Under the pieces are notes generated by a model. The model was given only the letters and a program-made list of their open reading frames with translations. It ran no database searches and was not told the origin of the DNA. Below, one piece after another: positions 14,747 to 19,275 of a stretch of 34,338 nt of DNA. This DNA comes from Myxococcales bacterium (GTDB lineage: Bacteria; Myxococcota; Myxococcia; Myxococcales; 40CM-4-68-19). The stretch's first letter is position 1; every line of letters begins with the position of its first letter. The position numbers and the translations under genes are program-made. The DNA lies in NCBI GenBank assembly GCA_038231075.1, contig JBBRMA010000057.1:1-34338 (forward strand), written 5' to 3'.

Positions 14747-15646
14747 GTGTCGACGACCGGCGAAGCCTTTCGCGCCAACGCGCCGCTTGCGCTCGGCGAC
14801 AGCTGGAACCCGAGCCTCTCGGCCGCGATGGATGAGGTGGTCGCGCGCGGAGCCGCCGCCTGGCCAGAGCTCGCAGTGGAGCCTGCGGCGGTCGTCGCGC
14901 AAGCGGCGCGAGCGCTTCCCCGAACGCTGGCCGCAGGAGCGCTCGCAGACACCATCGCCTCGCTGCACGCCGCCGACCTGCACCTCGCGTGCGGCTGCGC
15001 GCTCGGATCGGCAGCGGCGCTGTCAGCGTTCGACCGCCGATTCCTCGCCGCCGGAGTGCTGCGGGCGGCGCTCGCGCGCATCGACACCGCGCCGGCCTTC
15101 GCCGACGAGGTGAGCCAGATGCTGCGCGAGAAGCTGCTGCTGGCGCGGCCCGGCGCGCCACCGCGCATCGCTGAGTACTCGGGCCGGAGACCGCTCTCGA
15201 GCTGGGTGCGGGCCATCGCGGTGCACGCCGCGGTCGACCTGCGCCGCAGCGGCGGGGCGGCCAACGCCCCTTCGGCCGACGAGCGCGCCGCCGATCAGCT
15301 CGTGGGTGGCGAGAGCCCGGAGCTGCAATATCTGCAGCTCCGCTACGGCCCGATTCTTCGAGAGGCGCTGAGCGCTTCTTTTGCCTTGCTCGACGACGAG
15401 CAGGCAAATCTGCTCCGCCTCCAGCTCGTCGATGGGCTGCGCACGCCGCAGATCGCGGCGCTCTTCGGTGTCGCCCGCTCGACCGTCAACCGGCGCCTCA
15501 CGAGCTGCCGCGAGCTCCTGCTGGCCGAGTCGCAGAAGCGGCTGCGCGAGAAGCTGCACCTGAGCCCCTCCGAGTTCGAGAGCCTCGCGGGACTCTTGCG
15601 AGGCGAGCTTTATCTCTCGCTGGGCCGGCTGCTCAAGCGGTCCTGA
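14747..15646 (+). CDS. ECF-like sigma-70 family RNA polymerase sigma factor with a ~90-aa N-terminal extension
   Basis: Region 2-like GRRPLSSWVRAIAVHAAVDLRR and a region 4 HTH (LRTPQIAALFGVARSTVNRRLTSCRELL). GTG start; the 5' end is uncertain. Confidence 0.7.
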   Translation: MSTTGEAFRANAPLALGDSWNPSLSAAMDEVVARGAAAWPELAVEPAAVVAQAARALPRTLAAGALADTIASLHAADLHLACGCALGSAAALSAFDRRFLAAGVLRAALARIDTAPAFADEVSQMLREKLLLARPGAPPRIAEYSGRRPLSSWVRAIAVHAAVDLRRSGGAANAPSADERAADQLVGGESPELQYLQLRYGPILREALSASFALLDDEQANLLRLQLVDGLRTPQIAALFGVARSTVNRRLTSCRELLLAESQKRLREKLHLSPSEFESLAGLLRGELYLSLGRLLKRS

Positions 15647-15701
15647 CGCCGCCGTCGGCCTGGCACGTTCAGGTGATCCGAGAAACAAGATGCAGCGTCC
15701 T

Positions 15702-18700: not shown

Positions 18701-18968
18701 CTTCCCACACCTCGCCCATCGCGCCGAGGCCGAGCAGCTTCACCACTTCGTAGCGGCCGATGACGGTGCCCGTGCAAAGCGCCGCCGCCGGTTGGTCCGA
18801 CTCCGACTCGTCCGGCGGGGCCGGCTCCAGCTCTCGTCCGAAATCGGCGAGCATCCCCCGGCAGGCCTCGCAGGAGCGCAGGTGCTGGTGCAGCGCCGCG
18901 CTCGCGGCCGTGTCGCCGCCCTCGGCAACCAGATCGAACAGCTCGTCCGTCGATGGACACGAGCTCAT
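15702..18968 (-). CDS. Membrane-anchored Ser/Thr protein kinase with an N-terminal zinc-finger anti-sigma (ZAS, H-x3-C-x2-C) motif and a long C-terminal TPR-repeat region
   Basis: Kinase motifs GLGAMGEVWEA, VALK, HRDFKPDNLL, DFGLAR and GTPAYMAPE. N-terminal HQHLRSCEAC. One TM helix (LLLLALAVSVIGLIA) after the kinase domain. ATG 18968 with GGAGAG 9 nt upstream; alternative ATG 18989. Confidence 0.8.
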   Translation of the reverse strand: MSSCPSTDELFDLVAEGGDTAASAALHQHLRSCEACRGMLADFGRELEPAPPDESESDQPAAALCTGTVIGRYEVVKLLGLGAMGEVWEALDPSLGRSVALKVLRGRAASGDPLQQQARVWREAQAMARLSHPNVVAVHEVVSHGGQLFLAMDLVVGGTLRAWLASKPRKLDEVLSAFVEAARGLAAAHAAGLVHRDFKPDNLLIGDDGRVRVTDFGLARSSEVAELRASSPGADPSEARLTQTGALLGTPAYMAPEQMRGEPIDARADLFSFCASLFEAVQSEPPFKAGSLAELRCRAEANEVTPRAPTVPAWLRKVLLKGLRADRTERWASMDELIAAIQAGRARAHLRLRWRRTAASLLLLALAVSVIGLIARPAAAPAMAVRRSVAVLGPRNANGMPGAAWLSSALADMLGAELAAGEQLRLVPGRGAAEAAANLGLRGAPELRPGDLRRLRETLGSDLVVAGSYLAPAAGPLRLELRLYEAVSGRAIAVITEVAESSQLAPLATRAGDKLRQALQLAKPAVSDASSSFPSDPEAERLLAEGRAQLAALAPHAALATLVRASRLAPDNVRVLMALAEVHAELGDNSAARADGKRAFASAAGLGREERLRIERLMVLPAAGDWRRAVEISQSLWTFFPDDAEYGLRLASDLLVAQRIDDAKGVLAQIRKLPPPPGRDPRIDLIESNAGSLAGDHELARDAAARCAEGAQKRSSRLLFATCRARGAEALRRLGQPAAAIAALAEAGAIYLQLGDRRGAAAATLALGRLSADTGDLAKAGTRFEDAVRLARELDDLYLEAAATNDLGNLQRRLRHNDEALATFARAGKLADRLNRPIAVLAATVNRANVLAVLGRLQEASAEYEAAEALDARTPGRPAHFETAAGRFEIALQRGELTRARALAEEALAAAGSDSINSGQAQLCLAIVDLADGRLASATEHASRSTALLKAARDRDDLAVACAILSRAHLDGGKVAEAALAAAAARDALAGNQSSRASALVGIAGARAQARQPGQLAPAIGALRVIAAEAEKTGSMSDRLEANLALGELLLRAGDREGRVALNAVVSDAGARGFKLIADAAARAQAAP

Positions 18969-19275
18969 GGCTTCACGCTCTCCTGGCATCACGCTCTCAC
19001 GGCAGCACCGCCGCGTCACCGGCCGAGGGAAACGAGCCGGGCCGCCGACTGGCCCACCTGGCGCAGTCGCGGGTTCTCGGCGAGGCCCATGATCTCCAAC
19101 CCGAGAGGCCGCGGCCGCCGGGTCTTCGCTCGCCTTTCCAGACGAGCGCGCGGAAGTTCGGCACCAGCCAGTCGCCGTCGTTCTTCGCTGCAATCGACTG
19201 TGTCCAACATGGTGGACATCAGTCACCAAGCCGGGAGCCTGAGGTGTTTTTCGAGCCGTTTGCGCATGATCGGGT

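Follow-up and report, generated by a model that had tools for sequence, protein, structure and literature searches.

A 34,338-nt stretch of DNA from a Myxococcales bacterium (assembly GCA_038231075.1, contig JBBRMA010000057.1, positions 1 to 34,338; the whole stretch is hereafter called the window) carries a gene for a sigma factor of the extracytoplasmic function (ECF) type and, on the opposite strand, a gene for a protein that joins an N-terminal zinc anti-sigma-type (ZAS) domain to a Hanks-type Ser/Thr kinase domain, a predicted transmembrane helix and a large, presumably sensory region. The two genes are convergent, with stop codons 55 bp apart. The G+C content of the window is 65-75%, and its proteins, like all of the related loci, point to Myxococcota. 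Here, we describe the two proteins and the recurrence of their pairing, and argue, with a probability of roughly 0.55, that they form a cognate regulatory pair in which sequestration of the sigma factor by the membrane-bound anti-sigma/kinase fusion is relieved by phosphorylation. The features of the locus are as follows.

14747..15646, plus strand: sigma gene, 299 aa, GTG start; ECF-type, NCBIfam TIGR03001
14747..14962, plus strand: sigma N-terminal extension, about aa 1-72; four helices ahead of region 2.1
14963..15253, plus strand: Sigma2 domain, about aa 73-169; region 2.2 is F118-A-D120-E121-V-R-Q124
15317..15556, plus strand: Sigma4 domain, about aa 191-270; helix-turn-helix of region 4.2; Pfam Sigma70_ECF and Sigma70_r4_2
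15557..15643, plus strand: sigma C-terminal extension, about aa 271-299; one long helix
15702..18968, minus strand: kinase gene, 1088 aa plus stop; alternative upstream ATG at 18989
18828..18968, minus strand: N-terminal zinc anti-sigma-type domain, aa 1-47; predicted ligands C4, H29, C33 and C36; predicted helices 7-16, 21-32 and 34-47
18759..18827, minus strand: Pro/Ser/Glu-rich disordered linker, aa 48-70, joining the anti-sigma-type and kinase domains
17934..18758, minus strand: Hanks-type Ser/Thr kinase catalytic domain, aa 71-345; Pfam Pkinase E 6e-39
17841..17900, minus strand: predicted single transmembrane helix, aa 357-376; preceded by RLRWRR on the cytoplasmic side
17334..17816, minus strand: juxtamembrane TolB-N-terminal-like domain, about aa 385-545; periplasmic according to the predicted topology
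15705..17306, minus strand: tetratricopeptide repeat (TPR)/MalT-like superhelical region, about aa 555-1088; periplasmic according to the predicted topology, presumed sensor

Architecture of the sigma factor and the kinase

The sigma factor matches TIGR03001 (Sig-70_gmx1, 'RNA polymerase sigma-70 factor, Myxococcales family 1') at 212.5 bits (cut-off 154.6), residues 54-297 covering profile positions 6-244 of 244, and its Sigma2 and Sigma4 domains, joined by a short linker without a sigma3, correspond to the layout of ECF (group 4) sigma factors. The generic ECF model TIGR02937 scores 35.4 bits, under its 42.9-bit cut-off, and Pfam sees region 4 only, with Sigma70_r2 undetected; the sigma2 domain is therefore divergent. 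A profile of 24 sigma homologues aligns with AlgU/sigmaE-type ECF sigma factors in the PDB from region 2.2 to region 4.2. For the AlphaFold2 (AF2) model, which has a predicted local distance difference test score (pLDDT) of 89.7, every top Foldseek match is an ECF sigma factor, and sigma4 superposes on region 4 of sigmaE and SigL at a root-mean-square deviation of 1.6-1.9 Å. The N-terminal extension is modelled at pLDDT 93-98 and is kept in homologues; 71 of these, 290-300 aa long, align end to end, and their alignment from residue 1 rules out the extension as a start-codon artefact. Neither the N-terminal nor the C-terminal extension has a counterpart in the matching solved ECF sigma factors, and autoinhibition, a kinase target or contact with the zinc domain are possible roles for them. 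Conserved Ser positions in the C-terminal helix are 279, 286 and 291, of which position 286 is Gly in the window protein.

Region 2.2 carries the motif DxxDxxQE in ordinary ECF sigma factors and an uncharged QTTA in ECF43, which needs phosphorylation (PMC8999054, PMC13147305). D120 of the window protein aligns with the phospho-Thr position of the ECF43 sigma factors in these studies; across the 71 homologues this position is acidic in 92% and E121 in 97%, and with the acidic residues retained an ECF43-type phospho-switch at sigma2.2 was rejected, as the sigma factor does not seem to depend on phosphorylation there. Because region 2.2 keeps these residues, unlike that of ECF43, the sigma factor appears competent by itself to bind core polymerase, and an inhibitor would probably be required.

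The kinase gene has two in-frame ATG codons 5' of the sequence encoding a conserved Cys/His motif, one at 18989 (MPGEREAMSSCPS..., 1095 aa) and one at 18968 (MSSCPS..., 1088 aa). Because the database protein identical to the window kinase (P0001) has 1088 aa and begins MSSCPS, and because kinase homologues begin 3-8 residues ahead of the conserved Cys, 18968 is most likely the start, in preference to 18989. The motif is translated from either ATG, and a start downstream of it was ruled out, since 36 of the 120 best-scoring homologues and 35 of the 38 sigma-adjacent kinases keep the motif in frame.

Across 34 full-length relatives the kinase domain holds the entire catalytic set, invariant or nearly so: the Gly-rich loop (G80/G82), the VAIK Lys (K102), the alphaC Glu (E123), the HRD motif (H195-R196-D197), the Asn (N202), the DFG motif (D215-F216-G217) and the APE motif (P256-E257). 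The AF2 model of residues 1-400 has a mean pLDDT of 80.9 and shows a confident kinase fold, preceded by the linker, which falls below pLDDT 50 at residues 48-60 and varies in length and sequence among relatives. Because the catalytic residues are invariant, the zinc-domain kinases are predicted to be active, and their activity to be under selection. The segment at 357-376 gives the sole strongly hydrophobic peak of the protein (Kyte-Doolittle maximum 2.45 over 19 residues) and falls inside a long helix (334-374) of the model. With one such stretch, and RLRWRR N-terminal to it, residues 1-356 are predicted to be cytoplasmic and the remainder to lie outside. The TolB assignment of the juxtamembrane domain comes from a weak NCBIfam match (residues 393-531 to profile positions 22-153, E 0.079), and homologues are named 'TolB-like protein' by JGI. 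The TPR region that follows, of about 530 residues, is the presumed sensor; it matches TPR_12 at 32.1 bits (cut-off 30.1), TPR_MalT at 31.9 bits, under the cut-off, and also TPR_19.

The initial annotation of this DNA had described the neighbour as a convergent 299-aa ECF-like sigma factor with an N-terminal extension, and the kinase as a canonical Hanks enzyme with one transmembrane helix and a long TPR-like region; all of this holds, as do the sequence and coordinates given for the kinase, for which only the length of 1089 aa proved approximate.

The zinc anti-sigma-type domain and its pairing with the sigma factor

The string ALHQHLRSCEACRGML was confirmed in the kinase sequence, from which H29-x3-C33-x2-C36 can be read, with C4 lying 25 residues upstream of H29; the three-residue motif is invariant in the 34 full-length relatives. 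From typical His and Cys frequencies, we estimate that H-x3-C-x2-C would arise by chance about 2e-4 times per 100 residues, and as the motif recurs at the same position with a fourth ligand 24-26 residues upstream, a chance origin is negligible. An alignment of 49 N-terminal domains, drawn from database homologues and from kinases adjoining related sigma genes (37% mean identity), has only four invariant columns, C4, H29, C33 and C36; the last three had served to select the domains and C4 had not. In three further relatives, His replaces the first Cys. Such Cys/His alternation occurs among known ZAS domains, with CHCC in RsiW and DdvA and HHCC in RslA (PMC11506125).

A profile of the 49 domains searched against all PDB sequences matched DdvA of Myxococcus xanthus (4.5e-7) and RslA of Mycobacterium tuberculosis (2.9e-6), then RsiW of Bacillus subtilis and ChrR of Rhodobacter sphaeroides, with E values ranging from 4.5e-7 to 4e-3. 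The initial annotation had taken the H-x3-C-x2-C motif as diagnostic of a zinc anti-sigma domain and had proposed a comparison with the Pfam model zf-HC2 (PF13490). For the window protein alone this comparison falls short, at 13.7 bits for the full length and 17.2 bits for the domain by itself against a gathering score of 22.2 bits, with only the second half of the model matched, and so formally touches a failure that the initial annotation had named as refuting; at the level of the family, 44 of the 49 domains match at E < 0.01 (best 2.3e-9). Judged by these family-level profiles, the N-terminal domain is homologous to zinc anti-sigma domains, as had been claimed, and its CHCC set is predicted to bind zinc.

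In the AF2 model, the three helices of the domain (7-16, 21-32 and 34-47) have pLDDT 63-82 and are followed by disorder, with no fourth helix, and the model places no confident contact between the zinc domain and the kinase (linker pLDDT < 50). Most class I anti-sigma domains have four helices, of which the fourth contacts sigma2. By analogy, the missing helix would be no argument against function, because the experimentally proven DdvA domain, which also lacks it, has a high affinity for both sigma2 and sigma4 of its partner (PMC11506125).

When one genome per species was scanned, 50 loci with a relative of the sigma factor were obtained, all in Myxococcota and some of them in Corallococcus and Myxococcus. 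A Hanks kinase lies within 7 kb of the sigma gene in 35 of the 50, and C/H-x24-26-H-x3-C-x2-C stands directly upstream of the kinase domain in 35 of the 38 sigma-adjacent kinases. The nearest kinase bears the motif in 33 of the 35 kinase-containing loci; the two exceptions are a locus with the sigma gene at a contig edge and a kinase whose N terminus is apparently frame-shifted. When kinases are ranked by similarity to the entire window protein, only 36 of the top 120 have the motif. Where full flanks are available on both sides, the pair is present in 16-17 of 23 loci. The co-occurrence in other genomes that the initial annotation had proposed to look for is thus borne out, and in any orientation: the two genes may be divergent, as for the closest sigma relative (L001, 64% identity) and for the kinase relative P0011, tandem or convergent. 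Several genomes hold two or more such modules, and the C-terminal sensors of the paired kinases vary from TPRs to PD40-type beta-propellers and short forms of 360-500 aa. At the locus of P0011 (L052), a second, ordinary ECF sigma gene of 195 aa (6103-6690, minus strand) is convergent with the kinase gene, while the TIGR03001-type sigma factor there, 45% identical to that of the window, is encoded divergently.

Other neighbouring genes are unconserved, in that the 667-aa propeller protein and a 424-aa open reading frame (ORF) of the window have no relatives in the other loci, and the genes between sigma and kinase in L023 and L036 are unlike each other; the one in L023 encodes a different secreted propeller. 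No other anti-sigma candidate was found near the sigma gene in the window, nor any other ZAS-type ORF in the 15 sigma loci that lack a kinase. Pairwise distances between the sigma factors correlate with those between the kinase domains (r = 0.69) and between the ZAS domains (r = 0.62), values reached in none of 2000 permutations (0/2000 for either), and the correlations stay positive when near-identical pairs are left out (0.47 and 0.34, respectively). The sequences thus indicate that the zinc-domain kinase and the sigma factor are inherited and duplicated as a unit, which alone does not imply contact between them.

A proposed switch and competing explanations

Because the acidic motif of the sigma factor is kept, no separate anti-sigma gene lies nearby and the N-terminal domain is homologous to sigma-inhibiting domains, we think that this domain sequesters the sigma factor at the membrane; sigma binding, the target of phosphorylation and the direction of its effect are what we infer for the switch described here. 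The three-helix CHCC domain would bind the TIGR03001-type sigma factor at the inner membrane, keeping it off RNA polymerase and beside the kinase active site. The TolB-N-like and TPR region would sense an envelope or extracellular cue and switch the kinase on, probably by dimerization and activation-loop autophosphorylation, as in other receptor kinases. By phosphorylating either the sigma factor in the complex or its own linker or anti-sigma domain, the kinase would then break the complex and free the sigma factor. A precedent in trans is provided by M. tuberculosis, in which PknB phosphorylates RshA, leading to release of SigH, and RseA, leading to its degradation (PMC8999054, PMC13147305). 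The suggestion of the initial annotation that a built-in anti-sigma domain couples sequestration to phosphorylation is supported as far as computation reaches, and the mechanism appears plausible. A wider generalization we hold tentatively, with the balance tilted slightly against it: the loci may represent a dedicated class of ECF regulators in Myxococcota, in which a DdvA-type domain sits at the N terminus of a receptor Hanks kinase and a membrane-held sigma factor is freed by phosphorylation in cis, not by proteolysis, with many paralogous modules and interchangeable periplasmic sensors. Such a class would join two signalling systems so far treated apart.

Several points weigh against the proposed switch. 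The window protein alone scores under the zf-HC2 cut-off; neither the anti-sigma domain nor the linker has a Ser/Thr of notable conservation, those that are conserved in the sigma factor (T246, T262, S279, S286 and S291) may be purely structural, and prolines right after helix 3 (ELEPAPP) speak against a DdvA-type extension of that helix. Co-diversification can be explained by co-inheritance alone. About a quarter of the full-flank sigma loci have neither a kinase nor a ZAS protein within 7 kb, the available flanks of P0004, a close relative of the kinase, hold no sigma gene (1.5 kb upstream, 6 kb downstream), and the genes in the window are convergent, hence not co-transcribed.

We ranked three further accounts of the zinc domain, as a docking module, as a proteolytically controlled anti-sigma factor and as a redox or zinc switch, below release by phosphorylation. 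As a docking module, the domain would recruit the sigma factor as a substrate without inhibiting it, and phosphorylation would activate the sigma factor, as in EcfP/PknT and EcfK/PknS. In kinase-linked ECF groups, the Hanks kinase is established to act by phosphorylating the sigma factor directly (PMC8999054, PMC13147305, PMC7826278). Conserved pairing and co-diversification agree with docking no less than with inhibition, and the C-terminal part of the sigma factor has conserved Ser/Thr positions. We nevertheless regard docking as unlikely, given that the charge-less sigma2.2 motif of ECF43 is absent, with positions 120 and 121 acidic at the frequencies given above, and that the domain is homologous to ones known to inhibit through sigma2 and sigma4 surfaces (PMC11506125). 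It is more doubtful still that the protein is a classical anti-sigma factor whose partner is freed by regulated intramembrane proteolysis like that of RseA or DdvA, the kinase serving other targets or tuning stability. The order of cytoplasmic anti-sigma domain, transmembrane helix and periplasmic TPRs is that of DdvA and many membrane anti-sigma factors (PMC11506125), and proteolysis that depends on phosphorylation is known for M. tuberculosis RseA (PMC8999054); however, a folded 275-residue kinase lies between domain and membrane, so that an intramembrane cut would leave a large anti-sigma/kinase fragment still needing degradation, and the invariant catalytic residues and strict linkage of zinc domain and kinase in 33 loci suggest that the kinase belongs to the sigma switch.

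The CHCC domain might also act within the protein, as a zinc or thiol-redox switch on the kinase itself, with the sigma factor a mere substrate or co-regulated neighbour. Some ZAS domains, such as those of RsrA and RshA, do sense redox (PMC8999054), and the flexible linker tethers the domain to the kinase. This account would leave the tie of the fusion to one sigma family unexplained, and the model shows no confident packing of domain on kinase. ZAS domains are, moreover, mostly structural zinc sites and not redox sensors, and we give such a switch little credence. That the genes are unrelated convergent neighbours and the Cys/His cluster is incidental is hardly credible: the convergent arrangement with no shared transcript and the sub-threshold Pfam score would agree with it, but the pairing recurs in 33 of 35 loci while other neighbours differ, none of the 2000 permutations matches the observed correlations, and the four ligands are invariant.

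Surroundings, significance and comparison with known systems

Divergent from the kinase gene, 19276-21279 (plus strand) encodes a 667-aa NHL/SBBP beta-propeller protein, probably a lipoprotein (N terminus ...LAAACG); it does not belong to the conserved part of the module, but could still be a target gene. A scan of 14400-19400 for sigma-70 promoters and terminators gave nothing above expectation, and a search of 48 regions upstream of sigma genes for pairs of 5-mers and 4-mers with 15-18 nt spacers returned GC-rich noise no better than shuffles. A segment of some 6 kb (21000-27000) has a lower G+C content, 0.63-0.65 against about 0.70-0.75, and may be horizontally acquired. In it, a 772-aa ORF at 21314-23632 (minus strand) has a weak Peptidase_M91 'effector protein' match, and the long ORFs at 23893-26544 and 26216-28783 have no Pfam match. 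A 1302-aa protein with seven Big_7 bacterial Ig domains (29207-33115, plus strand) and a 271-aa ORF at the window edge with a weak pretoxin-HINT match (33516-34331, minus strand) suggest a polymorphic-toxin or surface-protein locus. On the other side of the pair, the window encodes a 395-aa protein with cysteine-rich DUF7107 and Dickkopf_N-like repeats, an unusual eukaryote-like module (3039-4226, minus strand), a 936-aa fused ABC transporter whose N-terminal region of about 360 residues has no Pfam match (5251-8061, minus strand) and a 458-aa NTP_transf_5 'uncharacterised nucleotidyltransferase' (11057-12433, plus strand; E 1e-32).

Control of ECF sigma factors has been sorted separately into anti-sigma sequestration, usually with proteolytic release, and activation by Hanks kinases in groups without anti-sigma factors (PMC7826278, PMC8999054); the kinase-linked groups, ECF43, ECF59-62, ECF217, ECF267 and ECF283, typically lack them (PMC7826278). 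Links between ECF sigma factors and Hanks kinases are already known, as are zinc anti-sigma domains on single-pass proteins with periplasmic TPRs, such as DdvA. A zinc anti-sigma/Hanks-kinase fusion tied to one sigma family appears undescribed: a full-text literature search returned no paper on such a fusion or on TIGR03001, with mention in ECF reclassification supplements, Jogler 2012 or Huang 2015 possible, and for some relatives precomputed Pfam annotations already list PF13490 together with PF00069. The locus in the window and at least 33 related loci place both control elements in one protein alongside one sigma family. Binding of the sigma factor by the domain, should it occur, would explain how the kinase gains specificity for this substrate, assign a regulator to the myxobacterial TIGR03001 sigma factors and provide a reversible release mechanism free of proteolysis; the modular set of sensor, kinase and sigma factor would then be potentially useful for orthogonal synthetic circuits.

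Among solved structures, the best match to the N-terminal domain is DdvA, of the DdvA/DdvS system of M. xanthus (PDB 8rlz and 8rot; E 4.5e-7), from the same phylum. Nuclear magnetic resonance shows helices at 5-14, 19-29 and 33-46 of the DdvA domain, with zinc centred on C6/H28/C32/C35, no fourth helix and disorder at residues 47-70 (PMC11506125), so that the CHCC spacing is near-identical to that of C4/H29/C33/C36 here and the helix layout predicted for the window protein agrees almost residue for residue, down to the disordered tail. Both proteins have a single transmembrane helix and a large periplasmic region with TPRs. Unlike the window protein, DdvA has no kinase domain and its tail leads directly to the membrane, a CHAT protease forms the end of its periplasmic part, and release is proposed to be proteolytic; DdvS is a minimal ECF sigma factor without the N- and C-terminal extensions seen here.

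RsbW and SpoIIAB are soluble kinases of the GHKL fold; their substrate is an anti-anti-sigma factor, and the sigma factors on which they act belong to group 3. They have no zinc domain, Hanks fold or membrane sensor. They likewise combine an anti-sigma factor and a protein kinase in one polypeptide (RsbW: PMC7406223), and are analogous, not homologous, to the window kinase.

The ECF43 pairs EcfP/PknT of Vibrio parahaemolyticus and EcfK/PknS of Xanthomonas citri resemble the pair described here in that the gene of an ECF-type sigma factor is linked to that of a membrane-spanning Hanks kinase, the extracytoplasmic sensor varies and a separate anti-sigma gene is missing, but no anti-sigma domain is described for PknT or PknS in these reports (PMC8999054, PMC13147305). 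The ECF43 sigma factors lack the acidic sigma2.2 and are switched on by phospho-Thr there, whereas the window sigma factor keeps D120/E121 and has extra N- and C-terminal domains. The logic proposed here, in which a Hanks kinase phosphorylates a zinc anti-sigma factor and an ECF sigma factor is freed, is that of M. tuberculosis PknB acting on RshA (SigH) and RseA (SigE) (PMC8999054, PMC13147305). In that system, however, kinase and anti-sigma factor are two proteins with genes at different loci, and PknB also phosphorylates many other substrates, whereas here the two are fused and dedicated to one sigma family.

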